Shown here one piece after another: positions 4,709-54,011 of a stretch of 64,000 nucleotides of DNA; the first letter of the stretch is position 1; each line of letters begins with the position of its first letter. A model generated the notes under the pieces. That model did not search any database. It was not told where the DNA came from and saw only the letters and a list, made by a program, of their open reading frames with translations. The stretch is from Candidatus Multivorans sp. (GTDB lineage: Bacteria > Acidobacteriota > Thermoanaerobaculia > Multivoradales > Multivoraceae): contig OZ242167.1 in the NCBI GenBank assembly GCA_965205295.1, positions 2,898,097-2,962,096 of the forward strand. Direction: 5' to 3'. The translations under genes were made by a program, and so were the position numbers.

Positions 4709-5176
4709 ATGCTCCGCGGCCTGGTCCGCTATCCCCTCGAGGTGGCGGTTTGCACGATCCTGGTCGCTCTGGTCGCGGTGACCTTCTCCCAGGTCGTCTT
4801 CCGCTACGTGCTGGAAGCCTCCCTGTCCTGGTCGGAGGAGCTGGCCCGGTTTCTCCTGATGTGGCTGGCGGCCCTGTCCGCCGCCTACGCGATGAAGACC
4901 GGCGCCCACTTCGCGCTCCGGTTCGTGGTCGACAGGACTCCGCCCAACGTGCAGCGGTGGATCGGCTCCGCGGTCGCGCTCAGCTCGGCCGCCTTCCTTG
5001 CCGTCTTCGCCTACCAGTCGCTCCGCTTCATCATCGAGGTCCACGACATGGTGGCGCCGGCGACGCGCATGTCGATGGCCATCCCGTACTCGTCGGCCTT
5101 TGTCGGCAGCGCGCTGACCCTGTACTACGTGCTCGTGAACTGGCGCCGGGAACTCCGGGCACAGGGACAGGAGTAG
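4709..5176 (+). CDS. TRAP transporter small permease (DctQ-like)
   Basis: Four-TM small hydrophobic protein (LVRYPLEVAVCTILVALVAVTFSQVVFRYVLE) immediately upstream of the DctM-like gene. Start trimmed to the ATG at 4709. Confidence 0.8.
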   Translation: MLRGLVRYPLEVAVCTILVALVAVTFSQVVFRYVLEASLSWSEELARFLLMWLAALSAAYAMKTGAHFALRFVVDRTPPNVQRWIGSAVALSSAAFLAVFAYQSLRFIIEVHDMVAPATRMSMAIPYSSAFVGSALTLYYVLVNWRRELRAQGQE

Positions 5177-5189
5177 GGCGCCGGGAACG

Positions 5190-6470
5190 ATGGGACTCCT
5201 GGTCATCCTCACCCTGGCGGCGGCGCTCCTTCTCGGCGTGCCGGTGGCCATCGCGCTGGCGCTGGCGGCGTTGGTCGGCCTGCTCTACAGTTCGCCGGAG
5301 TTCCTGATCGTCCTGCCGCAGAAGTTCCTGGCCGGTCTCGATTCGTTCCCGCTGCTGGCGGTGCCGCTGTTCGTCCTCGCCGGAGCGTTGATCTCCCACG
5401 GCGGCATGGCGCGCCGGATCGTCGACCTGGCGATGCAGTTCGTCGGCCGCCTCCCGGGCGGTCTCGGCCTGGTCGTCATCCTGTCGACGATGATGTTCTC
5501 CGGCATCTCCGGCTCCCCGAGCGCGAACACCGCCGCGATCGGGTCCGTCGCCCTGCCGGCGATGCGACAGCGGCAGTATCCAGCAGCCTTCGCGACCGCG
5601 GTCTTCGCCTCGGCCGGCGGCGTCTCGACCCTGGTGCCGCCCGCGATCGACCTGATCATCATCGGCGTCGTCTCGGGGATGTCGATCGGCGCCCTGTTCG
5701 CGGCCGGCATCACGCCAGCGATCGTGCTGGGTCTGGCGCTGATGGGCATGACCTACGTCCGCGCGCTCGCACTCAACCTGCCGCTCGAGGCGAAGGCGTC
5801 GTGGCCGCACAGACTCCGCGTGATCCGCAACGGCATCCTGCCGCTGTTCATGATCGCGATCATCCTCGGCGGCATCTACGGCGGCGTGTTCACGCCCACC
5901 GAGGCGTCCGCGGTCGCCGTGGTCTACGGCGCCCTGGTCTCCTTCTTCGTCTACCGGGAACTCAAGCTCGAGGACATCCCGAAGGTCCTGCTGCAGACGG
6001 CCTCGCTCTCCGGCGTCGTCCTGTTCGTGCTGGGGACGGCGTCCATGTTCTCGTTCGTTCTAACCTTCGACCGGCTGCCGCACCTGCTGGCCGAGTTGAT
6101 CACCGCCAACGCGCCCAACTGGATCGTCTTCATCCTCTTCGTCCACCTGATCTTCCTCGTGCTCGGGATGGTCATGGACGCCCTGCCGCCGATCATCATC
6201 CTGATGCCCATCCTGCTGCCGGCGGCGATGGCGCTCGGCATGGATCCGGTCCACTTCGGCATCCTGGTCGCCGCGAACGTCGGCATCGGCATGATCTCGC
6301 CGCCGGTCGGCATCTGCCTGTACGTGGCCTGCGGCATCTCGAAGACGCCGATCGAGAAGGTGACGCCGAAGCTCCTTCCCTTCCTCGCGCTGCTCCTCCT
6401 GATGCTGATGGTGATCACCTTCGTGCCCGGCGTCACGTTGTGGCTGCCGCACGCGCTCGGCTATGAGTGA
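5190..6470 (+). CDS. TRAP transporter large permease (DctM-like)
   Basis: 426-aa polytopic membrane protein with the typical DctM N-terminus MGLLVILTLAAALLLGVPVAIALAL. Overlaps the next gene by 8 nt. Confidence 0.9.
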   Translation: MGLLVILTLAAALLLGVPVAIALALAALVGLLYSSPEFLIVLPQKFLAGLDSFPLLAVPLFVLAGALISHGGMARRIVDLAMQFVGRLPGGLGLVVILSTMMFSGISGSPSANTAAIGSVALPAMRQRQYPAAFATAVFASAGGVSTLVPPAIDLIIIGVVSGMSIGALFAAGITPAIVLGLALMGMTYVRALALNLPLEAKASWPHRLRVIRNGILPLFMIAIILGGIYGGVFTPTEASAVAVVYGALVSFFVYRELKLEDIPKVLLQTASLSGVVLFVLGTASMFSFVLTFDRLPHLLAELITANAPNWIVFILFVHLIFLVLGMVMDALPPIIILMPILLPAAMALGMDPVHFGILVAANVGIGMISPPVGICLYVACGISKTPIEKVTPKLLPFLALLLLMLMVITFVPGVTLWLPHALGYE

Positions 6471-7455
6471 TCCGCGCCGCATCGCGGCATTCCTCGCCGT
6501 CTGCGCTCTCGCCATGCTCGGCAGCGGTTGCCGAGACGACGACGGCGTCACCGTGCTCAAGGTCGCCCACAACGGGCCGGTCGGACACCCGTTCCAGGTC
6601 GGCTTCGAGGAGTTCCGGCGCGTCCTGGAAGACCGCACCGACGGCGCGGTGCAGGTGCAGATCTTCGAGAACGAGCAACTGGGCACCGAGGAAGAGGCCA
6701 CCCTGATGGTCAAGCTGGGAGCGCTGGCCGCTTCCGCCGCGAGCGCCGGCGGCGGCATCTCGGCCTTCGTCCCGGAGGCGGAGATCTTCAACTTCCCCTT
6801 CATCTTCCGCGATCTCGATCACTTCTACCGGGTGCTCGACGGACCGGTCGGCGAGCGCGTGGCCGGCCGAATCGAGGACGAGCTCGATGTCGTCGTGCTC
6901 GGCTACTGGTTCGCCGGCCGCCGCAACGCCTGGAACGCGGAGCGGCCGGTGGTCACGCCGAGCGACTTCGAAGGTCTGAAGATCCGCGTCATCCCGACCC
7001 CGATCCTGGTCGACACCTTCAACGCCCTCGGCGCGCAGGCGACGCCGATGTCGTTCGGCGAGCTCTACTCGGCCCTGGAGCAGGGCGTGGTCGACGGCGC
7101 CGAGACGGACCACGTCGACCTCTACCAGGAGCGCTTCTACGAGGTCACCAAGTACGTGTCCTACACGCGGCACCTCTACCTCGCCGTGGCTCTCATCTTC
7201 AGCCGCAAGCTCTACGACGAGCTGCCGCCGGACGTCCAGGCGGCGGTGGTCGAAGCCGGCAGGGCCTCGACCCGGGTCCAGCGGCTGGCGATGACGTCGA
7301 TGACCGCGTCGGCGCTCGAGGAGTTGCAGAAGCTGGGCCTCGAGTTCAACGAGGTCGATCGCGCCCTGTTCGAGGACGAGGTGCGGCAGGTGTACTTGGA
7401 CAACGCCGCCCGAGTCGGCGGGCTCGAGGCGATCGAGGAGGTCGCCCGGCAGTAG
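6463..7455 (+). CDS. TRAP transporter substrate-binding protein (DctP family)
   Basis: Lipoprotein signal (LAMLGSGCRDD) and the DctP-type region VLKVAHNGPVGHPFQVGFEEFRRVLEDRTDGAVQVQIFENEQLG. Confidence 0.85.
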   Translation: MSDPRRIAAFLAVCALAMLGSGCRDDDGVTVLKVAHNGPVGHPFQVGFEEFRRVLEDRTDGAVQVQIFENEQLGTEEEATLMVKLGALAASAASAGGGISAFVPEAEIFNFPFIFRDLDHFYRVLDGPVGERVAGRIEDELDVVVLGYWFAGRRNAWNAERPVVTPSDFEGLKIRVIPTPILVDTFNALGAQATPMSFGELYSALEQGVVDGAETDHVDLYQERFYEVTKYVSYTRHLYLAVALIFSRKLYDELPPDVQAAVVEAGRASTRVQRLAMTSMTASALEELQKLGLEFNEVDRALFEDEVRQVYLDNAARVGGLEAIEEVARQ

Positions 7456-7485: not shown

Positions 7486-7517
7486 CCGGATGCGGGCAGG
7501 ATGCCCGCGTTCCCAGG
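7486..7517. repeat. REP-like palindromic element copy A (CCGGATGCGGGCAGGATGCCCGCGTTCCCAGG)
   Basis: 7-bp inverted arms GCGGGCA/TGCCCGC around GGA. Intergenic, between dctP and the TonB receptor. One of at least 5 copies. Confidence 0.7.
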
Positions 7518-7719: not shown

Positions 7720-10506
7720 ATGAAGCACAGCAGAGCCACGGATTCTCGCTCCCTTGCCCCCGTGGCGAGCAGCACACTGATCATCTGCCTGGGGGCGCTC
7801 TTCGCCTTCGCGGGAGCGGCCGCATGGGCCCAGTCGATCGAGCGCGGCTCGATCACCGGCACGCTCACGGACCCGAACGGCGACCGGATGCCGGGGGTCA
7901 ACGTCACTCTCACGTCGACGGAGTTGGGAGCGACGAAGGAGACGATGACGGACGGGAACGGGCGCTACCGTTTCGTCGCCCTGCTGCCGTCCACCTACAC
8001 CGTCGAAGCCGCGATCGAGGGCTTCTCGACCGCCCAGCAGGGCGAGATCGAGCTCACGGTCGGCAAGAGCCTGACCGTCGACCTGACGATGCAGTTGGGC
8101 AGCGTCGAGGACGTGATCATCGTCGAGGGCTCGCCCCTGATCGATGTCCGCAGTTCTCAGCTCCAGACGACGGAGCTCAACAACGAGATCCTGATGGAGG
8201 TGCCCACCTCCCGGAGCATCCGCGGCATCGTCAAGCTGGCGCCCGGAGCGCACTCACTGAACCCCGACTCGAACTCCCACTCCGCTTTCGGCTCGTCCGA
8301 CCAGGGGATCCAGTACTCCGTCGACGGCGTGATCATCAACAGCCCGGAGGCGGGTGAAAGCGAAGTGAACCTCGGCTTCCTTTCGGTTGAGGAAGTCACC
8401 ATTCTCGGCGCGGGCGCCCCGGCCGAGTACGGCGGCTTCAGCGGCGTCATCGTCAACGTGACCACGAAGCAGGGCTCGAACGACCTGATCGGCCTGGTGG
8501 ACCTGCAGCTCGCGGACAACGACTGGCAGTCGCAGAACACGAACGACCCCGACCTGCAGCGAAGCGGCAGCGATCGCTCAGACACGGACGTGCACTTCGA
8601 CGTCGGCGGGCCGGTCCAGGCGGACAAGGCGTGGTTCTTCACCTCGGCCAGGCTCCGCAGAGAGAAGTCGAAGGCGTCCGAGGGCCATCCCAACGATCCC
8701 TCCTACGAGTCGCCCCGCATTGTCGGCAAGATCAACTGGGCGCCCTCGCAGGAGAAGATCTTCAGCGGGATGGTCGAGTACAGCACCCACGACGCGCTCT
8801 ACCAAGGCGCCGACGAGGGTGACTTTGTCTCCCCGAACGCGACCTTCAGCAACCTCCAGACCCAGTGGACCTACAACTTCAACTACACGGACATGCTGTC
8901 GTCCAACACCCTGCTCGATCTCAAGTTCGGCGGCTACCACCAGCGCCAGGACGAGCTGCCGGACAACGGCGACACACCGGCCCACTACGACGGCTTCGAG
9001 GACCGGCTGTCCGAGAACTGGTTCGGCCCCTTCCGGGCGAACCGGGAGCGCTACCAGATCGTCGGCTCGCTGAGCCACTTCACCGACGACTTCCTCAGCG
9101 GCGAGCACGACTTCAAGTTCGGCGTCGAGATCGAGAACACCCTGGTCAACACGCTCAGCGGGTTCTCGGGCGGCAAGTACTACTACGACTTCGCCGGCGA
9201 GCCGTACTTCCTGTACGAGAGCACCGGCTACAACACCTTCGGCGACACCGACCGCATGGCCGGCTACGTGCAGGACTCCTGGGGGATCAACGACCGGGTG
9301 CGACTGAACCTCGGCGTGCGGTTCAACTACTGGCGCGGCAATCTGGAATCGGACGTGAACGGCGTCCGCTTCGACCAGGGCACCGTGTTCACGCCCGACC
9401 TCGCCATCGCGCCCCGCGTCGGCCTGAACATCAACCTCGGCGACAACAACGACTCCGTGCTCAAGGCGCACTGGGGCCGCTACTACCACCAGGTCATCGC
9501 CCTCTTCTACAGCCGGCTGGCCCCCGAGAGCGACTTCACGGGCTACCTCTGGAATCCCGACGACGAGATCTGGGAACTCGACTTCTCGGAAGCCCGGGGG
9601 CCGGGCCAGTGGACGATCGACGACGGCCTCAGCGTGCCCTACATGCACGCCCTGGATGTCGGCTGGGAGAAGGTCCTGACCCGCACCGTGTCCCTCGACG
9701 TCACCGCGACCTACCGGACGAACCACGACTTCCTCGACGGCGTGAACCTGACCGGTGAATTCGAACCCGCGCGGTACACGGATCCGGACAGCGGACGGAC
9801 CTTCAACGTCCTCAACCAGACCAACGAGGGAGACAACCGCTTCTACTTCACGAACGTCGGCTACTGCGAGGACTACGGGCAGGCCTACAAGCAGCTCACC
9901 TGCTTCCGGAAGACGCGCAAGTACGCCGGCATCACGGCAAGCCTGTCCCGGCGCTGGCGCAACAAGTGGCAGATGCAGGCTTCGTGGACCTACGGTTCGG
10001 CCAGGGGTAGCGACAGCAACCTGCTGCTCGAGTTCCAGGAGGGGAAGGGCTCGTCGCTTGGCGGCTCGAACTTCTACACCGACCCGAACGAGCAGATCAA
10101 CGCCCACGGGAACCTGCCGATCGACCCGACCCATCTGATCAAGGTCGTGGGCTCCGCCGAACTGCCGGGCGGGATCGTCGTCGGCGGCTTCTTCCGGTTC
10201 TTCTCCGGCAACACCTACAACCAGCTCATCAGGGTGGAGGACGTCGATCAGCGTTCCGAGATCTTCGGCGCCCCGGGGGGTTCCTTCCGTCACGACGAGG
10301 GCATGAGCCTCGATCTGAGGCTCGAGAAGGACATACAAATAGGGGAGAACCGCAAGATCGGGGTGGGAATCGACATCTTCAACGTCGGTAATCAGGACAC
10401 CGTGATCGAAGCCGAACAGTCGCTCAACAGCGACCGGCCCTTCGGTGCCCCGACACGTCTCGTGCGTGGGCGGGTCTGGCGGCTGGGGGCGCGGTTCCAC
10501 TTCTAA
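7720..10506 (+). CDS. TonB-dependent receptor with N-terminal carboxypeptidase-regulatory-like domain
   Basis: Signal peptide. CarboxypepD_reg-like segment GSITGTLTDPNGDRMPGVNVTLTS...GNGRYRFVALLPSTYTV, then a plug region and a long beta-barrel. C-terminal aromatic residue (F). Confidence 0.8.
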   Translation: MKHSRATDSRSLAPVASSTLIICLGALFAFAGAAAWAQSIERGSITGTLTDPNGDRMPGVNVTLTSTELGATKETMTDGNGRYRFVALLPSTYTVEAAIEGFSTAQQGEIELTVGKSLTVDLTMQLGSVEDVIIVEGSPLIDVRSSQLQTTELNNEILMEVPTSRSIRGIVKLAPGAHSLNPDSNSHSAFGSSDQGIQYSVDGVIINSPEAGESEVNLGFLSVEEVTILGAGAPAEYGGFSGVIVNVTTKQGSNDLIGLVDLQLADNDWQSQNTNDPDLQRSGSDRSDTDVHFDVGGPVQADKAWFFTSARLRREKSKASEGHPNDPSYESPRIVGKINWAPSQEKIFSGMVEYSTHDALYQGADEGDFVSPNATFSNLQTQWTYNFNYTDMLSSNTLLDLKFGGYHQRQDELPDNGDTPAHYDGFEDRLSENWFGPFRANRERYQIVGSLSHFTDDFLSGEHDFKFGVEIENTLVNTLSGFSGGKYYYDFAGEPYFLYESTGYNTFGDTDRMAGYVQDSWGINDRVRLNLGVRFNYWRGNLESDVNGVRFDQGTVFTPDLAIAPRVGLNINLGDNNDSVLKAHWGRYYHQVIALFYSRLAPESDFTGYLWNPDDEIWELDFSEARGPGQWTIDDGLSVPYMHALDVGWEKVLTRTVSLDVTATYRTNHDFLDGVNLTGEFEPARYTDPDSGRTFNVLNQTNEGDNRFYFTNVGYCEDYGQAYKQLTCFRKTRKYAGITASLSRRWRNKWQMQASWTYGSARGSDSNLLLEFQEGKGSSLGGSNFYTDPNEQINAHGNLPIDPTHLIKVVGSAELPGGIVVGGFFRFFSGNTYNQLIRVEDVDQRSEIFGAPGGSFRHDEGMSLDLRLEKDIQIGENRKIGVGIDIFNVGNQDTVIEAEQSLNSDRPFGAPTRLVRGRVWRLGARFHF

Positions 10507-36060: not shown

Positions 36061-36092
36061 CCGGATGCGGGCGAGACGCCCGCGTTCCCAGG
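36061..36092. repeat. REP-like palindromic element copy B (CCGGATGCGGGCGAGACGCCCGCGTTCCCAGG)
   Basis: Intergenic between two minus-strand genes. The arms carry a compensatory pair relative to copy A (GCGGGCG/CGCCCGC). Confidence 0.7.
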
Positions 36093-37708: not shown

Positions 37709-39052
37709 CTACTGTTCCAACTGCACGACGCCATCGCTGAACTGCAGGAGCTCGACGCCCCGCAGCATGTCCGTCCCGTCCCGGTCCGGCTGCGAGTCGA
37801 CGACCATCGTCGAGTCGCCGTCCCCGCTGACTTCGTAGTCCGCCGCCGGGCCGCCGAAGACGGCCGTGTCGTCGCCGGCGCCGCCGTCCAGCGTGTCGTT
37901 GCCGCCGCCGCCCTCGAGCCGGTTCGCGCCGGCGTTGCCGGTGAGCACGTTGTCGTGGACGTTGCCGCGCAGGTTCGCGTCGCCGTCGCCGGTCAGCGCG
38001 GCGTTGCGAAGATGCTGGGTCTTCATGGTGTAGCGCTCATCCGGATCGAACGCCATCGAGAACGTCCCGCTGAAGTCCAGAGGCAGTTCCGGCGTGTAGG
38101 TCAGATGCGGCCCGACGAACTTCGTGACCAGCGCGTAGCCGAGCGGGTCCTTCTCCGGCATCAAAGCGCGGCTGCCCGCGAAGTACTCCCCGAAGTGCGA
38201 ATGGCCCTCCGGAATGTCGCCAGGCTCGATGTCGCGCCCCTCGTACTTGGTCGGCGGCACGGTCCAGAGGTCGTAGTAGTTGTCGATCAGGACGCCCACG
38301 TACTCGTTCGGGTGGTTCTCCGTCTCTTCTCTGGGCCAGCCCACCCAGCCCTTCGTTTCCGCCTCATCGTTCGCCGCTCTCATCTCGGCGATCATCGAAG
38401 TGAGCGTCGGCTTGATCCCGTAGTCGTGGATCAGGTGCCAGATCTCCTCGTAGGCGGCGTCGCGGGTGACGTGGGCCATGTAGTCCGCGTCGCCGACCGC
38501 CGGGCTCTCGTTCGCGCGCAGGTCCTGCATGCTCAGGTCCGTCGCCCCCGGCAGCCCCGAACGCATCGCCTCGTCCAGATCCTCCTCCGTGTTGAAGAAC
38601 ACCATCGTCGCCTTGCGGTCCGCCATCGCGTTGGCGATCCCGCTCTTGTCGTCGCCGTAGACCGAGCCGGGGACGTCGGTGAGCAGGAACTCCATCACGT
38701 TCCGGCCGTGCTTGATCTGGTCGCGGGTCCAGCCGTCCGAGGCCAGGATGTGGATCCGCCTGCCGTCCGGCGTCGGATAGTAGGTGTACTTGACGAAGTG
38801 CTCGCGGAACACCTCCGGCACGTCGGCCGGGAGGTCGACGATGCCGTCGGGCGAACCGGAGGTGTCGATGTCCGGCAGCGTGACGAGTTCCCGCGGGCCG
38901 CAGGCGGCCAGGAGCAGGCACCCGGTGGCGACCGCTAGCGCTACGGCGGCAGAACTACAGAAGGCCGACGCTTCGCGTCGGATGCCGGCGGGGGCGCCGG
39001 CGCACCCAGTTTCCGCCGCGCAAGCTCCTTGCAACGTCTTTGCTTGCCTCAT
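37709..39052 (-). CDS. lipoprotein with C-terminal hemolysin-type (RTX) calcium-binding repeats
   Basis: GGAGGAG RBS. Lipobox LLLAACG. C-terminal GNAGANRLEGGGGNDTLDGGAGDD nonapeptide-like repeats. Confidence 0.6.
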   Translation of the reverse strand: MRQAKTLQGACAAETGCAGAPAGIRREASAFCSSAAVALAVATGCLLLAACGPRELVTLPDIDTSGSPDGIVDLPADVPEVFREHFVKYTYYPTPDGRRIHILASDGWTRDQIKHGRNVMEFLLTDVPGSVYGDDKSGIANAMADRKATMVFFNTEEDLDEAMRSGLPGATDLSMQDLRANESPAVGDADYMAHVTRDAAYEEIWHLIHDYGIKPTLTSMIAEMRAANDEAETKGWVGWPREETENHPNEYVGVLIDNYYDLWTVPPTKYEGRDIEPGDIPEGHSHFGEYFAGSRALMPEKDPLGYALVTKFVGPHLTYTPELPLDFSGTFSMAFDPDERYTMKTQHLRNAALTGDGDANLRGNVHDNVLTGNAGANRLEGGGGNDTLDGGAGDDTAVFGGPAADYEVSGDGDSTMVVDSQPDRDGTDMLRGVELLQFSDGVVQLEQ

Positions 39053-39080
39053 GCTCTTCTCCTCCTCAGTCGTTCTCCGG

Positions 39081-40475
39081 TCAGTCCTGCAGGTACAGCT
39101 CCCAGAAGCTGGCTTGCCCCTCGTCTCTCGAGCGGTTCACGATCTTCCCATCCTTGATCACCATGGACAGGCTGCGCATGTGCGAGATGTGCTCGAGCGG
39201 GTTCTTCTCCAGCACGATCAGGTCGGCGAGCTTGCCGGCCTCGACCGTGCCGAGGTCGTCGAGCATCCCCATCATCTCGGCGCTGTTGCGGGTCGCGGCC
39301 TGGATGGCGCCCATCGGCGGAATGCCGTGGAACGCGAGCTGTTCGATCTCCAGGATGCCGATCTCCGAGATCGGATTCGAGTCGCTGCCGGTGGTCAGGC
39401 GGACGCCTGCGGCGTACGCCTTGTTGATCACGTCGCGGGCCAGCTCCGCCCGCTCCTGGCTCCGCTCGTCGGCGTGCGACACCCGCACCCGGCCTTCGAC
39501 GACCTCCGGCGCGTCGACGTAGCCGGCCTCCCGGATCAGCCGTTCCCGTTCGGCGATGAACTCGGTGCTCAGGTTGCACTGGATGGTCGGATCGAGGAAG
39601 GTCCCTGCCTCGGCCATCATCCGGATCGTGTCGTCGGAGAGGTCGTTGCCATGCTCGATGCTCTCGGCACCCGCCATCACCGCGATCCGGGTGGTCTCGT
39701 CGCCGGCGTGAACGGTGACCGGGATGCCGTGTCGATGGGCCTCGTCGATGCCGGCGATCAGCTCTTCCGGCGGCATCCGGCTGCCGAGGAACTTGATGAG
39801 TTCGGCCCCGTTCGCGATGTTGTCAGCGACCACGGCGCGAATGCCCTCCGGCCCCTTGCCGGTCCGCACCAGCCAGTCCGTGTCCCCGTCGGTCGAGAGC
39901 GGCGGTCCGCCTGCAACGATCCTGGGTCCGACGAAGACGCCGGCATCGAACGCCTGCTTCCAGGCCACGTCCATGAAGTCGCGCTCGCCGGTGATCCGGA
40001 GCGTCGTGAAGCCGGCCTTGAGCGCGTCCATCGCGTTGCGGCCGGCGCGAATCGCCGCACGCAGCAGCGGCTCGTCGGGCAGCAGGCCCTTGGGGTCGGG
40101 CAGCAGGTCGCCGAGGTGGGAGTGGTTGTTCCACAGGCCGGGCAGGACGTAGGCGCCGTCCAGGTCGATCACCCGCGCATCGGCGCCCGGGTCGGGCGCG
40201 GAGGCCGAAGGCGTATGGATCGCCGCGATGCGGTTCCCCTCGATGACCACCGTGGCGTCCTCGATCGGCGGCGCGCCGGTGGCGTCGATCACCGTGGCGT
40301 TGGTGAGGACGGTTGTCTGGGCAAAGGCCGGAGCAGCCGAAGCGAGCAGCACCGCTGCCGAGAAGAAGAGGAAGCGACACCTCGGCTGGACACGGACCGG
40401 CCTGCGGCCGGATGCGGGCAGGATGCCCGCGTTCCCAGGGAAGGCTCCGCGGTGTTTCTTCGTGTTCCGCTTCAT
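39081..40475 (-). CDS. metal-dependent amidohydrolase family protein (paralog 1)
   Basis: Strong RBS GAAGGAGGA 6 nt before the ATG at 40475. LPGLWNNHSHLGD metal-binding HxH motif. The N-terminal n-region contains an in-frame REP-like element encoding FPGNAGILPASGRR. Confidence 0.75.
   Translation of the reverse strand: MKRNTKKHRGAFPGNAGILPASGRRPVRVQPRCRFLFFSAAVLLASAAPAFAQTTVLTNATVIDATGAPPIEDATVVIEGNRIAAIHTPSASAPDPGADARVIDLDGAYVLPGLWNNHSHLGDLLPDPKGLLPDEPLLRAAIRAGRNAMDALKAGFTTLRITGERDFMDVAWKQAFDAGVFVGPRIVAGGPPLSTDGDTDWLVRTGKGPEGIRAVVADNIANGAELIKFLGSRMPPEELIAGIDEAHRHGIPVTVHAGDETTRIAVMAGAESIEHGNDLSDDTIRMMAEAGTFLDPTIQCNLSTEFIAERERLIREAGYVDAPEVVEGRVRVSHADERSQERAELARDVINKAYAAGVRLTTGSDSNPISEIGILEIEQLAFHGIPPMGAIQAATRNSAEMMGMLDDLGTVEAGKLADLIVLEKNPLEHISHMRSLSMVIKDGKIVNRSRDEGQASFWELYLQD
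40408..40439. repeat. REP-like palindromic element copy C, lying inside the 5' coding region of the amidohydrolase gene
   Basis: Identical to copy A. Translated in-frame as PGNAGILPASG. Confidence 0.65.
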
Positions 40476-40506
40476 TCGCCGTCCTCCTTCAATGACGCGT
40501 TGACTG

Positions 40507-41898
40507 CTACTGATCGGATGCCGTCGCGCCGCGCTGGAAGCCCGCCGCCTCCTCGGACTCCGAGAGGAAACCCTCGGGCAGCTCCATCGGGCCGTAGTAG
40601 TCCCAGTAGCTCGCCGTTCCGAGCTGCCCGTCCAGGTCGACCACGACGCCGCCCTTGAGCACCATCACGGTCTTGCGGATGTTCGAGATGTTCTCGAGGG
40701 GACTGTCCCCCAGGACGACCAGGTCGGCCAGCTTCCCCTCCTCCACCGTGCCGAGAACGTTGAGCACGCCCTGCACCTCGGCCGCGTTGCGGGTCGCCGC
40801 GATGATCGTGTCCATCTCGCTGACCCCGGAGATGACGAACTGCTCCATCTCCAGGAATCCCATCTCGCCGATCGGCATCGAGTCCGAACCGATCAGGAGC
40901 TTCACTCCCGCCTCGGCCGCCTTGGCCAGCGCCTGCCGCTGGTCTCGCGCGAACTCCGGCGACCGTTCGTCAGCAAAGGCGACCATCGTCCGCAACCGCA
41001 CGATCTCCTCGTCGTCCGAGTATCCGAGTTCCGCCAGCCGCGCCTCGCGCTCGCGGATGTACTCGGCGCTCAGATTGCAGATGATCGTCGGGTCGTAGAA
41101 CGTGCCCTTCTCGGCCATCAACTCGATCGTCTCGTCGGTCAGCCCGTAGCCATGCTCGAGACAGTCCACCCCGGCCTCCACCGCGGCCCGCGCCCCCGGC
41201 TCGCGGACATGCGAAGTGACGTGAACACCGAGGCTGTGCGCCGTCTGGACCGCCGCCTCAAGCTCGTCCGGCAGCATCTCGACGCTGAACAGCTTGATCG
41301 CCCTGGCGCCCCTCTGGACGCGCGACCGCACCTCCTTGCGGATCGCGGCCACGCCGTCGGCGCCTTCCTCGACCGAACCCCGATGCCCGGCGGTCGGACT
41401 CACCGGTTCGCCGCTGGCGAAGACCCTCGGACCAAGGAAGAAGCCATGGTCGAACGCCTGCTGCCAGGCGACGTCGATGTAGTCCTCCTCGCCCACCGAG
41501 CGCACGCTGGTGAAGCCGTGGCGCAGCCCGTCTATCGCGTTTAGTCCCGCGCGGATGACCTTGGATGGCATCCGTTCGTCGTCCAGGGCGTGGTTGTCCG
41601 GGAACATCACGCTCAGATGGGTGTGCATGTTCCAGAACCCGGGCAGCACCCAGGCGCCGTCGAGATCGTGGACGTCGGCCGCGTCACCGCCGTCAGGGGC
41701 CCGGTACGGACCCTCCCTAATCGACGCGATCCGCTCGCCCACGATTGCGATCGTCATGTCCTCCTGGACGGGACCGCCCGTGCCGTCAATGATGTTGACG
41801 TCGGTCAGGACGATCGTCTGCGCGGCGAGGCCGGCCGGCACGAAACCGGCAAGGAGTATCGGCATCACCCGAACCAGACCGATCCGGAACGTTTTCAT
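40507..41898 (-). CDS. metal-dependent amidohydrolase family protein (paralog 2)
   Basis: Start at the ATG at 41898 (MKTFRIGLVRVMPILLAGFVPAGLAAQ signal). LPGFWNMHTHLS HxH motif. Tandem paralog of 39081..40475. Confidence 0.75.
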   Translation of the reverse strand: MKTFRIGLVRVMPILLAGFVPAGLAAQTIVLTDVNIIDGTGGPVQEDMTIAIVGERIASIREGPYRAPDGGDAADVHDLDGAWVLPGFWNMHTHLSVMFPDNHALDDERMPSKVIRAGLNAIDGLRHGFTSVRSVGEEDYIDVAWQQAFDHGFFLGPRVFASGEPVSPTAGHRGSVEEGADGVAAIRKEVRSRVQRGARAIKLFSVEMLPDELEAAVQTAHSLGVHVTSHVREPGARAAVEAGVDCLEHGYGLTDETIELMAEKGTFYDPTIICNLSAEYIREREARLAELGYSDDEEIVRLRTMVAFADERSPEFARDQRQALAKAAEAGVKLLIGSDSMPIGEMGFLEMEQFVISGVSEMDTIIAATRNAAEVQGVLNVLGTVEEGKLADLVVLGDSPLENISNIRKTVMVLKGGVVVDLDGQLGTASYWDYYGPMELPEGFLSESEEAAGFQRGATASDQ

Positions 41899-41959
41899 CG
41901 CAACGAATCGTCTACTGTACACGGCCGATCCACGCCGGGCGCCTGCGGGCGATGCGCGT

Positions 41960-43845
<1,886 letters not shown>

Positions 43846-43849
<4 letters not shown>

Positions 43850-46704
43850 CCGCCCGCTCCGGCGACCCCCGGCCGGTCGCCTTCGAAGCGCCCGGGCCGG
43901 TGCAGGTCGTAGATCACGATCGCCTCGGCCGCGTGATCGGCCGCCGCGTCGGCGCGTCTGGCGGCGGCGATTGCCCGGTCCCGGGCGTTGTCGTCCGGCC
44001 TGTACTTCGCATGAAGTTCCTGGTGGCGCTCCGCGCCCTCGCGATCGCCAAGCTGGCCGTAGATCAAACCCAGGTTGTAGTGGGCAGTGACGTTCTCCGG
44101 GTCGATGACCAGGGCGCTCTCGAACGACTCCCGCGCCTCGTTGAGCCGCGCCGCGCGCGCCTCGGCGCGGGCAGGGCCCCGCTCGCGCTTGGCGCGCTCG
44201 AACAGAGCCAGACCGAGCTGGTTCTGCAGCCGCACGTCGCGGCTGAAGTCGAAGCCGCGGCGCCGCATCTCCTCGCTGTCGGCGTCGAGGATCGAGCGGA
44301 AGTTCGCGATCGCCTCGTCGACGGCGCCGTTCTGGAAGTTGACCAGCCCGGTGAACCACGCGACCGACCACGCCGCAGCCGCCGGGTCGAAGGTGGCGGC
44401 CCGCTCGAGGGCCGCGATCGCGTCGTCGGTGACCGTGCCCTGCGCCAGGTAGACGCGGGCGAGGTTGAGCGGTCCGTCGGGACGGCCTAACTCCTCGACC
44501 CGGGTGAACGCCTCGATCGCCTGCCGCAGCTCGCCGCGGCCGGTGCCGCCCTTGCGCAGGAGGCCGATGCCGTAGTCGTTCCAGCGTTGCCAGAGAGGCT
44601 TGGCGGGTTCGCGGACCTCCGGACCGGATGCGGGCGAGACGCCCGCGTGCCCAGGGGCGGAGGCGCCCGCCACCGGGAAGGTCACCGTGTCCCGGGCCAG
44701 GTCGAGAATCGGCAGTTCGTTCACCGTGTCCTCGCCGTAGATGTAGCGCAGGTACGTCGTGTCGAACTTGCGGTAGCGGAGCGTCGCCTCGACGGTCAGG
44801 CTGCCCGTGGCCGCCGCCGGCGGTACTTCCAGCCGGTAGTGGACCACGTCGCCCGCCCCCGGCGGGATCTGATGGTCGTACAGCGGCACGAAGATGTCCT
44901 CGGCGTTGCGGCGATCGATCCGCGCGCCGTCGCGGTCGAGCATGTAGACGTTGATGAAGTGGGACCAGGGGTCGACCCGGTTGCCCTCGCCCAAACCGCC
45001 GCTCCGCCCCACCAGCCGGCCGCTGTCGTCGCGCACCGCGATGTCCAGCCAGAGCTGGTTGGAGTCAACGGTGCCCTGGGTCAGGTGATGCCCCAGACCG
45101 AGGGTGCGTACAACGACCTCCAGCAGATAGTCCTCGCCCGCCTCGAGCGCCGGTATCTCGGGGCGCACCGGCGCGATCACCTCGTCCTCGATCGCGCCGC
45201 CCGGCTTGACGCCGAAGATGTCCACGTCGACGACGCCCTCGTTGAACTCGCGGTGCGCCTCGATCACCCAGTCCGGAAAGTCGAGCAGGTGGGGAATGCC
45301 GGTGTTGGCGGACGGGAACAGGTGGTCGTGGACCTGGGTGACATCAGGCTGTTCGCTCTCCGGGTGGCGGCGAGAACCGAAGTCGTCCGACGGCAGCAGG
45401 TCCATGTGGCAACCGTTGCAGTTCGGCTCGGCCTCGGGCGGGTAGTAGAAGCTCGCCACGCCGTGGCCCGAGACGCCGGAGAGCAGGTGCGAGTCGTAGT
45501 GGTTCTGTCCGCGCAGGAACTTGTAGTGGTTGAGTTCCTCCGGCAGGTGGACCTTGTGGCATGTGCCGCAGAACTCCGCCGTCGTGTGCAGGGGCTTGAG
45601 GAAGGTCCGTTTGTGCAGTTCGGGCTTCGCCTTGACCAGTTGGTGGTTGACGAACTGGAGGAAACCGGGCTCCGCGAACGCGAACGGGTAGTGCTGGGGC
45701 TCCTCGATCGTGTAGTCGGCGTTGCCGCGGGGACTGTTGACGTGGGTGATCGCGTGGCAGGACGTGCAGGTGATGCCGGCGTGCGCGGCCGGCTGCTCGA
45801 CATCGAACTCCGGGTCGTCGAAGGCGCCCGAGAAGAAGACCACCGGATCGTGGCAGCCGGCGCAGAAGCGGGACGCCTGCACGTCGCCGGAGCGCTCGTA
45901 CGCCTTGTCGCGGGTCTCCTGGACGGAGAAACTGTAGGCGGGGTTGTTGAAGGAGCTGAAGCGGTGGGCGCTGTAGGTCCAGCGGCCGTGGATGTCGGCA
46001 TGGCAGTCCACGCAGTAGGCGTCGTTCATCAACGCCCGCTCGGGGATGAAACCGCCGCTCGCGGTGCGCGCCAGGGCCGGGAAGAAGTACTGCTCTCCCG
46101 ACTCCGGACCTTCCACGTTCCACGCCCGCGGATCCTGGAACTGCAGCACCAGCGCCACGCCGACCAGAACCACGGCGGCGGCCGCCACGCGCGCACCGAT
46201 CCGCCAGTTGATTCGCTTGCCGGCGAGCCGGTGCAGCACGAACAGCCAGGCAGCCACCAGCGGCGCCAGGACGTGCAGCCAGTAGGCCACGCCGCGGACC
46301 GCCGGGTCGTTCACCGTGATGACCCCTTCGATCCGGGTCAGCACGATGCCGCTCAGAAGGAGCACGAGCGCCGTCCCGAACAGCGCATACCCCACCTTCA
46401 CCGCGCGCCGGTTGGGTCGATTGCGCGCGTTCCGCATGTGCGCCAGACCGAACCAGATCACCGGCGCCACGAACAATCCCCCCACCGCCAGGTGAAGCAG
46501 AAACATCGAGATGTAGAACCAGTTCTGGTAGGTCGCGCCGGTTGCCGCCTCGGCAACGCGAACGCCGGAGAGGTAGAACGAGTTCACCGCCAGCAGAGCG
46601 AACAGTCCGAAGACCACCCACAGGAGCGGTTTCAGCCTGGGGCCGATCGCCGGCCGGTAGCGCCGGCGTGCGGGCGGCTTTGCGCCGCCCGCGCTCGCTG
46701 TCAC
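43846..46704 (-). CDS. membrane-anchored multiheme cytochrome c fused to C-terminal TPR repeats
   Basis: GTG start overlapping the PBP stop. N-terminal TM helices. Five CxxCH sites (CVDCH, CAGCH, CTSCH, CGTCH, CNGCH). C-terminal TPR units. The interdomain linker contains REP-like copy D in-frame. Confidence 0.7.
44624..44655. repeat. REP-like palindromic element copy D, inside the coding sequence of the multiheme-TPR gene
   Basis: CCGGATGCGGGCGAGACGCCCGCGTGCCCAGG. Read on the minus strand it encodes PGHAGVSPASG in the gene frame, with no stop codons. Confidence 0.6.
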
Positions 46705-53979: not shown

Positions 53980-54011
53980 CTTGGGAACCCGGGCATCTTG
54001 CCCGCATCCGG
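53980..54011. repeat. REP-like palindromic element copy E (opposite orientation, one stem mismatch)
   Basis: CTTGGGAACCCGGGCATCTTGCCCGCATCCGG is the reverse complement of the family consensus. Intergenic between the XRE gene and pgi. Confidence 0.6.

Follow-up and report, generated by a model that had tools for sequence, protein, structure and literature searches.

In-frame copies of a 32-bp REP element, most likely RAYT-mobilised, in two secreted-protein genes of 'Candidatus Multivorans'

The stretch of 'Candidatus Multivorans' DNA analysed here, a window of 64 kb, holds five copies of a 32-bp hairpin element, which we labelled A to E by position. Two of them, C and D, lie inside minus-strand genes, one encoding an amidohydrolase with a predicted signal peptide and the other a multiheme cytochrome fused to a TPR domain. 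We consider it very probable that these copies belong to a REP family of 'Candidatus Multivorans', most likely mobilised by a RAYT (a REP-associated HUH tyrosine transposase), and that they are translated as most likely neutral passengers of their host proteins. A first-pass annotation had described both copies as in frame, with copy D free of stop codons, and the sequence and the translation of the open reading frames (ORFs) agree on this and on the positions, given below in window coordinates.

40408-40439, minus strand: REP copy C, in forward orientation on the amidohydrolase coding strand, loop ATCCT
44624-44655, minus strand: REP copy D, in forward orientation (CCTG head 5') on the cytochrome-TPR coding strand, loop GTCTC
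39081-40475, minus strand: amidohydrolase gene, 464 aa, Pfam Amidohydro_1, with a predicted signal peptide of about 53 aa that includes copy C
43846-46704, minus strand: cytochrome-TPR gene, 952 aa, membrane-anchored multiheme cytochrome with a beta domain and a TPR domain, copy D in the linker

On the coding strand the element is a 32-bp hairpin of the form CCTGGGAACGCGGGC-RTCYY-GCCCGCATCCGG. The full unit, CCTGGGAACGCGGGCATCCTGCCCGCATCCGG, begins with CCTG and ends with CCGG, and is made of a 4-nt unpaired head (CCTG), an imperfect stem, a 3-nt loop and a short tail. Read on the plus strand, copy C is CCGGATGCGGGCAGGATGCCCGCGTTCCCAGG and copy D is CCGGATGCGGGCGAGACGCCCGCGTGCCCAGG; they agree with the family consensus at 32 of 32 and 31 of 32 positions, respectively. 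To the copies of the window we added those of at least 111 other loci, found by scanning 8-kb stretches (loci labelled L...) from one genome per species with a strict 32-nt pattern, which gave a collection of 182 non-identical copies. In this collection the stem core GCGGGC/GCCCGC is invariant, and the information content stays at about 2 bits over exactly 32 positions and drops sharply on either side, a sharpness that is partly ascertainment by the search pattern. The five central bases read GAGAC in 106 cases, AGGAT in 54, AAGAT in 20 and GGGAC in 9, with non-pairing combinations of the first and fifth base totalling at most 5. The loop is RGA, and the pair that closes it thus covaries (G-C or A-T), keeping a 7-bp stem. 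When folded as RNA with G·U pairs allowed, the unit reaches -17.6 to -19.5 kcal/mol in either orientation, and its DNA fold has a z of about -3.1. Its six reading frames, read from the sequence, contain no stop codon. A 13-nt extension, CCGGCGCTTCGCG, is present on 29% of the copies, where it forms a second small hairpin using the CCGG end of the unit. No conserved dinucleotide duplication was detected in the flanks. At the gathering threshold, Rfam recognised two tRNAs only in the window and left the element unmatched. An intrinsic terminator was considered and rejected, as the consensus has no T run after the hairpin on either strand.

When we scanned the window with a 23-nt core pattern and compared the result with shuffled sequence, nine matches were found where 0.61 were expected, and none of 100 shuffles reached nine. 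These matches represent five loci, the palindromic core causing four of them to be counted twice, once per strand. The strict pattern occurs in at least 111 of the 8-kb stretches, almost all from metagenome-assembled genomes of 'Candidatus Multivorans' and a few from other uncultured Thermoanaerobaculia, and these stretches are spread over whole chromosomes of about ten genomes; the density in the window is five copies per 64 kb. The copies are mainly intergenic (125 of 172), with 38 of the 172 inside called genes. Convergent gene pairs, 14% of all adjacent pairs, have 42% of the intergenic copies in their spacers (p = 3e-14), whereas divergent spacers are depleted, with 8% of the intergenic copies against 15% of the gene pairs. 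Most copies stand alone or in head-to-tail arrays, whose periods are 28, 33, 34 or 57 bp. REPIN organisation, in which two inverted REPs make up the mobile doublet, was not observed in the loci, the only inverted pairs there being those that surround the RAYT gene.

This gene came to light when all ORFs in the loci were searched for an HUH...Y-x-x-N-P motif. The search returned a 214-aa protein in L011 (2169-2813, minus strand), with the motifs HVH and Y-I-E-G-N-P-V, and a C-terminal part at the edge of L069. The L011 protein scores 33.7 bits against Pfam Y1_Tnp (cutoff 23) and 79.8 bits against NCBIfam REP_Tyr_transpos (REP-associated tyrosine transposase), just under the cutoff of 80; it matches the E. 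coli TnpA-REP of PDB 4ER8 with E = 1.9e-7, and its homologs are named RayT by JGI and NCBI. Several forward copies of the element stand upstream of it and three tandem inverted copies follow it, the first of them 4 nt past the stop codon. In L116, a locus of the same genome as L113, about 14 units repeated head to tail every 28 bp (about 2520-2950) and one full copy occupy the upstream side in forward orientation, ending 55 bp before the RAYT ATG, and two inverted copies follow the stop. The L069 locus has the same inverted 3' flank as L011 and L116, and in L117 a RAYT that is 69% identical has single inverted variant copies at its ends. A flanked RAYT of this kind is the arrangement that defines REP-RAYT systems, and the inverted arrays around the gene thus identify the element as a REP of such a system. 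A first search, for any gene of 90-420 aa with copies on both sides, had yielded four unrelated genes.

Copy D is read on the coding strand as PGHAGVSPASG, residues 684-694 of the 952-aa protein, without a stop codon and in the context ...TFPVAGASA-PGHAGVSPASG-PEVREPAKPLWQRWNDYG (a stretch of this cytochrome-TPR protein is SAPGHAGVSPASGPEVR). The first-pass annotation took the cytochrome and TPR parts for a single gene, and rightly so: the ORF is continuous, and the fused architecture was found in 120 of the 120 listed homologs (numbered from P0001 onward), all of them single proteins of 853-1058 aa. Among these homologs, PGxAG(V/I)(S/L)PASG appears at the linker only in the closest relatives, P0001-P0015 (93-98% identity) and P0017 (91%). 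The peptide is absent from a clade of 943-aa proteins (88-92%), from a clade of 946-951-aa proteins (88-90%) and from more distant homologs, in which the linkers are unrelated and of variable length. Between the blocks ...DTVTFPV and KPLWQRWNDYGIGLL the linker of the listed homologs varies by several tens of residues as well as in sequence, and no alignment column from D672 to W705 is conserved. In an AlphaFold2 model with a mean pLDDT (the confidence score of the model) of 76.6, residues 682-693 fall below 50; they form a coil flanked by the beta-domain strand 667-679 and the first TPR helix 704-719, and in the model this low-confidence stretch corresponds essentially to the REP-encoded peptide.

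At the DNA level the element is absent from the syntenic locus L112. Related loci show site D in several states. In L113 two adjacent copies lie there with a 33-bp period, and, as their loop subtypes differ, the pair is better explained by a further insertion than by duplication; an additional decayed copy lies upstream in L114; and in L015 and the genes of the 944-aa proteins 24 nt have been lost between short direct repeats.

Copy C is read as PGNAGILPASG, residues 13-23 of the 464-aa ORF, again without a stop codon. It begins 12 codons after the ATG at 40475, the start of the protein being MKRNTKKHRGAF-PGNAGILPASG-RRPVRVQPRCRFLFFSAAVLLASAAPAFAQTTVL, and a ribosome-binding site (RBS), GAAGGAGGA, precedes this ATG by 8 nt. 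When we compared four orthologous loci, element-free ones included, we found that they have in common an upstream stop codon, the RBS and the start ATG AAG CGG AAC (MKRN). The predicted signal peptide extends over about 53 aa, up to AFA|Q, and copy C is predicted to be translated within its n-region. The peptide is limited to the window protein and P0121 (91% identical), which reads PGNAGVSPASG at the same position. In P0122 (453 aa, 88% identical) the element is missing while the RBS and the MKRNT start are kept, and this protein is exactly 11 residues shorter than that of the window, with flanks of the element position too diverged for a base-by-base alignment. The 438-aa orthologs P0126-P0129 are also element-free and keep the RBS and the MKRNT start; their signal peptide is about 26 aa long, MKRNTNRNRGVLLVALVLLLPIEANA|Q. 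Thus the insertion of about 11 residues that was anticipated in both proteins is seen exactly when the amidohydrolase is compared with P0122, whereas against the 438-aa orthologs it is 26 aa longer, not 11. Likewise, the N-terminus is lengthened, as had been proposed, but the figure of about 53 aa belongs to the whole predicted signal peptide and not to its n-region. L115, P0123 and P0124 carry a different hairpin element at the position of copy C. Since L114 has copy D without copy C and L112 has neither, copy C is the younger of the two.

In both proteins, then, the PGxAGxxPASG peptide is limited to the closest relatives and is not ancestral, which upholds the first reading of the two copies as in-frame insertions. 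A sequencing frameshift is unlikely, because the element is present, and likewise in frame, in independent assemblies (P0001 and P0002 for copy D, P0121 for copy C).

The 38 copies inside called genes share a preferred orientation: the CCTG head is on the coding strand in 33 and inverted in 5 (p = 4e-6), or roughly 25 against 5 when orthologs are collapsed by eye. Between co-directional genes the bias is weaker (40 against 23). Among the 33 forward copies, 23 are read in the frame PGNAG(V/I)(S/L)PASG, which is dominant at ORF ends; in copies that are clearly internal the frames are distributed more evenly. In all, the copies use five different frames, which indicates that what is shared is the DNA and not the peptide. 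RNA hairpin stability does not account for the orientation bias, as both orientations fold about equally well, and stop codons account for neither bias, as the six frames are all stop-free. A replichore check of orientation gave suggestive runs in OZ253534.1 and OZ245033.1, from sparse data and with the origin unplaced. In-frame copies were also found inside known Pfam domains, namely Amino_oxidase/HemY in L079 and PPDK_N in L110, in the HemC-HemD linker of L048 and in an SNF2-type helicase of L056/L020; in L073 one copy lies inside HisA (Pfam) and another at the HisA-HisF junction.

The remaining copies of the window and the related features near copies C and D are as follows.

7486-7517, minus strand: REP copy A, intergenic, 31 bp past the stop of the plus-strand gene 6463-7455 and upstream of the gene at 7762
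36061-36092, minus strand: REP copy B, intergenic, between two minus-strand genes (stop 36127, start 36037)
53980-54011, with a second hairpin to 54024, plus strand: REP copy E, two mismatches, between convergent genes
40397-40411, minus strand: small hairpin CCGGCC-TGC-GGCCGG, which shares the CCGG end of copy C and encodes part of GRRP
38964-39009, minus strand: two-hairpin related element, in frame within the signal-peptide region of the RTX lipoprotein gene (37709-39052)
43780-43795, minus strand: empty site in the FG-GAP/ASPIC gene, about 62 nt into the gene

The second hairpin of copy E is canonical (CCGGCGC-GAA-GCGCCGG), and the small hairpin beside copy C is a variant of the 13-nt extension of the family. 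For copy B, the orthologous spacer in L114 lacks the element; no base-exact empty site was found for this copy, the flanks in element-free orthologs having diverged or been rearranged. The element at 38964-39009 has the structure CTGGG-TGCGCCGGCG-CCCC-CGCCGGCA-TCCG-ACGC-GAA-GCGTCGG and encodes about TGCAGAPAGIRREASA. It is the third in-frame hairpin element of the neighbourhood, as the RTX lipoprotein gene adjoins that of the amidohydrolase, and the signal peptide of the lipoprotein is 51 aa long against 20 aa in three orthologs with the same RBS and ATG. In the L015 ortholog of the FG-GAP/ASPIC gene, which lies downstream of the cytochrome-TPR gene, we observed a 45-nt in-frame insertion, 21 codons from the start, which holds an inverted REP copy (6865-6896) read as PDAGETPAFPG. 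The corresponding empty site, at about 43787 in the window and also present in L114, has the sequence CCGGA even without the insertion, which matches the unit's first five bases. When pairs of flanks were searched across all loci, this was the one clean filled/empty pair (L015 against the window and L114), the other matches being differences in array copy number.

From these observations a scenario can be proposed. The element would most likely spread as single-stranded DNA mobilised by the RAYT, with new copies landing mostly just downstream of genes. Because the unit is stop-free in six frames, an insertion inside a gene can survive, presumably wherever it adds a net length divisible by three at a position that can accommodate about 11 additional residues, small or flexible ones. 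Such a position would have been, for copy D, the disordered and hypervariable linker that connects the beta domain to the TPR domain and, for copy C, the n-region of a signal peptide that is presumably cleaved off on export, so that the peptides themselves are probably neutral. The arrival of copy D would date to the ancestor of the closest clade (91-98% identity), after which this copy would have decayed, been partly deleted or been joined by a second adjacent copy, depending on the descendant, while the younger copy C would have entered only the lineage of the window and of P0121.

Several observations weigh against this interpretation. No base-exact empty site was found for copies C or D, because the linkers and signal peptides of the nearest element-free orthologs have diverged, and the sole clean filled/empty pair differs by 45 nt and not by 32. 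A RAYT was not found in the 64-kb window, in a scan of 35 proteins that showed only the 25 commonest Pfam families; the link with a RAYT is drawn from related genomes. Nearly all catalogued REPs are defined by an end tetranucleotide GTAG (or CGTC) (PMC3733652, PMC3479197), and neither tag is present in the 32 bp or in the flanking consensus; the head here is CCTG, which is neither GTAG nor one of its listed degenerate forms. The genes in the at least 111 loci were called by a crude codon-usage caller trained on those same loci, which reproduced sensible genes in the window, and orthologous copies from about ten related genomes are not independent counts.

Could the copies inside genes be functional, with a hairpin 36 nt after the start tuning translation or its coupling to secretion, or a Pro/Gly-rich peptide selected as a linker or as an extension of the n-region? 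The clustering of hairpin elements in three neighbouring secreted-protein genes (two in signal peptides, one in a linker), the different elements held by the amidohydrolase signal peptide in different lineages (L115, P0123 and P0124 against the window), the orientation bias inside ORFs, stronger than that between co-directional genes, and the predominance of a single frame all speak for it. However, element-free orthologs that are otherwise 88-92% identical are common, which indicates that the insert is dispensable, and at site D the copy is decaying or partly deleted in close relatives. The host genes are functionally unrelated, filtering for permissive sites would by itself predict an enrichment in linkers and signal peptides, and the frame bias is strongest at ORF ends, where many in-gene copies fall and where gene calls are least reliable. 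A functional role is thus unlikely. We are similarly doubtful, if slightly less so, of a broader possibility: that n-regions and linkers of secreted proteins are recurrently targeted, or inserts selected there, with the hairpin, its orientation and its frame modulating translation or export, or else that a CCTG-reading RAYT represents a new REP super-family with its own cleavage specificity.

It is very unlikely that copy C is part of an untranslated 5' leader with the true amidohydrolase start further downstream, even though many REPs annotated at the N-termini of ORFs are probably extragenic, with a start that may lie further downstream (PMC3733652). The sole in-frame start codon (ATG, GTG or TTG) between the ATG and the cleavage site is a GTG in the hydrophobic core (AAVLLASAAPAFA), and initiation there would leave no n-region and only part of that core. 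The ATG at 40475 must therefore be used, with the element inside the n-region, and the RBS and start codons kept in the four orthologous loci, of which the element-free ones have a normal 26-aa signal peptide, argue in the same direction. Least credible of all is that the PGxAGxxPASG segments are convergent or ancestral low-complexity coding sequence, shaped by slippage or gene conversion and not by mobile insertion. The linker and the signal peptide are indeed low-complexity, GC-rich and variable in length, slippage acts on such sequences, as the tandem arrays (28, 33, 34 and 57 bp) demonstrate, and gene conversion could explain why the loop subtype differs among the orthologous copies at site D. 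Yet both copies match the family consensus almost perfectly and with sharp boundaries, about 0.6 matches per window would be expected by chance, and the presence of the copies is phylogenetically nested. The same unit is also found between genes and in unrelated genes in at least five frames, with conservation of the DNA identity and not of the peptide.

Insertion of a mobile REP, the reading we prefer, also fits the many features that the element shares with the REP/RAYT systems (E. coli REP-BIME, Pseudomonas REPINs and the GTAG families). These are an imperfect palindrome of 20-40 bp with a 4-nt unpaired 5' head and a short loop, stem mismatches that turn into G·U pairs in RNA, and a high, dispersed copy number enriched after genes and between convergent and co-directional genes. 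In both, copies may stand alone, follow one another head to tail or form mosaics with small hairpins of other kinds; inverted copies border a Y1/HUH RAYT gene; and in-frame intragenic copies turn up occasionally. The REP of E. coli that was crystallised together with its RAYT in 4ER8, GTAGGACGGATAAGGCGTTTACGCCGCATCCG (PMC3479197), has the same layout as the present unit, with a GTAG head where the latter has CCTG, and its CGCCGCATCCG is similar to the 3' arm GCCCGCATCCGG found here. REPs located near 3' ends between convergent or co-directional genes follow the pattern of Di Nocera et al. 2013 (PMC3733652). Besides its head, the present family differs in consisting mainly of singletons and head-to-tail arrays instead of inverted REPIN doublets, and in its host, an acidobacterium of the Thermoanaerobaculia; in the 2013 survey, the Acidobacteriota had only RAYT-like genes with long terminal inverted repeats (PMC3733652).

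The first-pass annotation had compared the two copies to the Rickettsia palindromic elements (RPEs) and to the Correia elements of Neisseria. The comparison holds for their behaviour, but both are analogies only and the closer family is REP/RAYT. Like the RPEs, the present element is a palindromic repeat found in frame in many unrelated genes, at permissive surface, linker or N-terminal positions that leave the genes intact. RPE-1 elements are about 100-150 bp long and encode 30-50 aa. The element described here has 32 bp and no CGTC tag, and it belongs to a host of another phylum and lifestyle. Two short types, RPE-4 and RPE-6, carry the CGTC tag and lack a transposase of their own (PMC3733652). 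With Correia elements and other bacterial miniature inverted-repeat transposable elements it shares its small, non-autonomous nature, the ability to overlap or enter ORFs and the formation of RNA hairpins. Correia elements measure about 100-155 bp, have terminal inverted repeats of 26 bp, duplicate a TA target and descend from insertion sequences of the DDE type. In contrast, the 32-bp unit is a single hairpin without terminal inverted repeats or detectable target duplication, and it is linked to an HUH enzyme.

In-frame insertion had been expected to be a notable behaviour in this lineage. The lineage is indeed new, but the behaviour is less novel than was assumed: intragenic in-frame REPs of 7-30 residues were catalogued in 2013 in Opitutus terrae, Rickettsia conorii, Thauera and others (PMC3733652). 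That catalogue includes N-terminal copies and one in an ASPIC/UnbV protein, and O. terrae alone has dozens of intragenic copies, with 70 mentions of the species in Additional file 3 (PMC3733652). The present case thus adds a new family and a new host lineage to a known phenomenon. Its novelty lies in the lineage, the CCTG head, the clean association with a RAYT and the fact that three in-frame hairpin elements cluster in neighbouring genes for secreted proteins.

A REP-RAYT system with in-frame copies is hereby documented in the Thermoanaerobaculia, a group for which our literature search found none described; a search for 'Candidatus Multivorans' itself returned no papers. The copies point to disordered linkers and signal-peptide n-regions as the protein parts that absorb insertions. 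For annotation, the motifs PGNAGxxPASG, LGTRASRPHP and WERGRLARIR are better regarded as repeat-derived than as domain signatures, and the long N-termini of these secreted proteins as real and not as start-codon errors. The CCTG head in place of GTAG provides a natural variant for studying how RAYTs read their guide tetranucleotide, and the arrays of variable copy number, together with presence and absence between close genomes, could serve as strain markers.

A few further observations concern the surroundings of these copies. The genes for a penicillin-binding transpeptidase, the cytochrome-TPR protein and the FG-GAP/ASPIC protein overlap by 4 bp at each junction (43846-43849 and 46701-46704) and keep the same order in L112-L114, which suggests that they form a translationally coupled operon. 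In the genome of L113, both amidohydrolase genes and the RTX gene are absent between the ASPIC gene and an HD-domain gene (window 37709-42000), which indicates that this block is variable among close relatives. At L073 (1604-3319), a REP copy (read LRERGHPARFR) links hisA and hisF into a single uninterrupted ORF, and the element may have created or bridged this fusion.

The arrays of L049 (1439-2068 and 4894-5208) contain 22.5 copies of a 28-bp truncated unit and 5.5 copies of a 57-bp unit, the latter composed of the REP and a second hairpin, GCGCCCG-TCAT-CGGGCGC. A CRISPR reading of such tandem arrays was rejected, as spacers are absent. At the orthologous site in L070 only 1.5 copies are present, indicating that the number of copies per array is variable. 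Some REP copies have other small hairpin families, GTGCGCCCGATGACGGGTGCGC and GTGGCGCGGATCGCGCCAC, nested in them, as seen when L043 (reverse complement, about 871) is compared with L077 (1020-1409) and in L011 (reverse complement, 4950-5145 and 5900-6000). In L043 the insert follows GCGTTCC, and GTTCC recurs on its far side.

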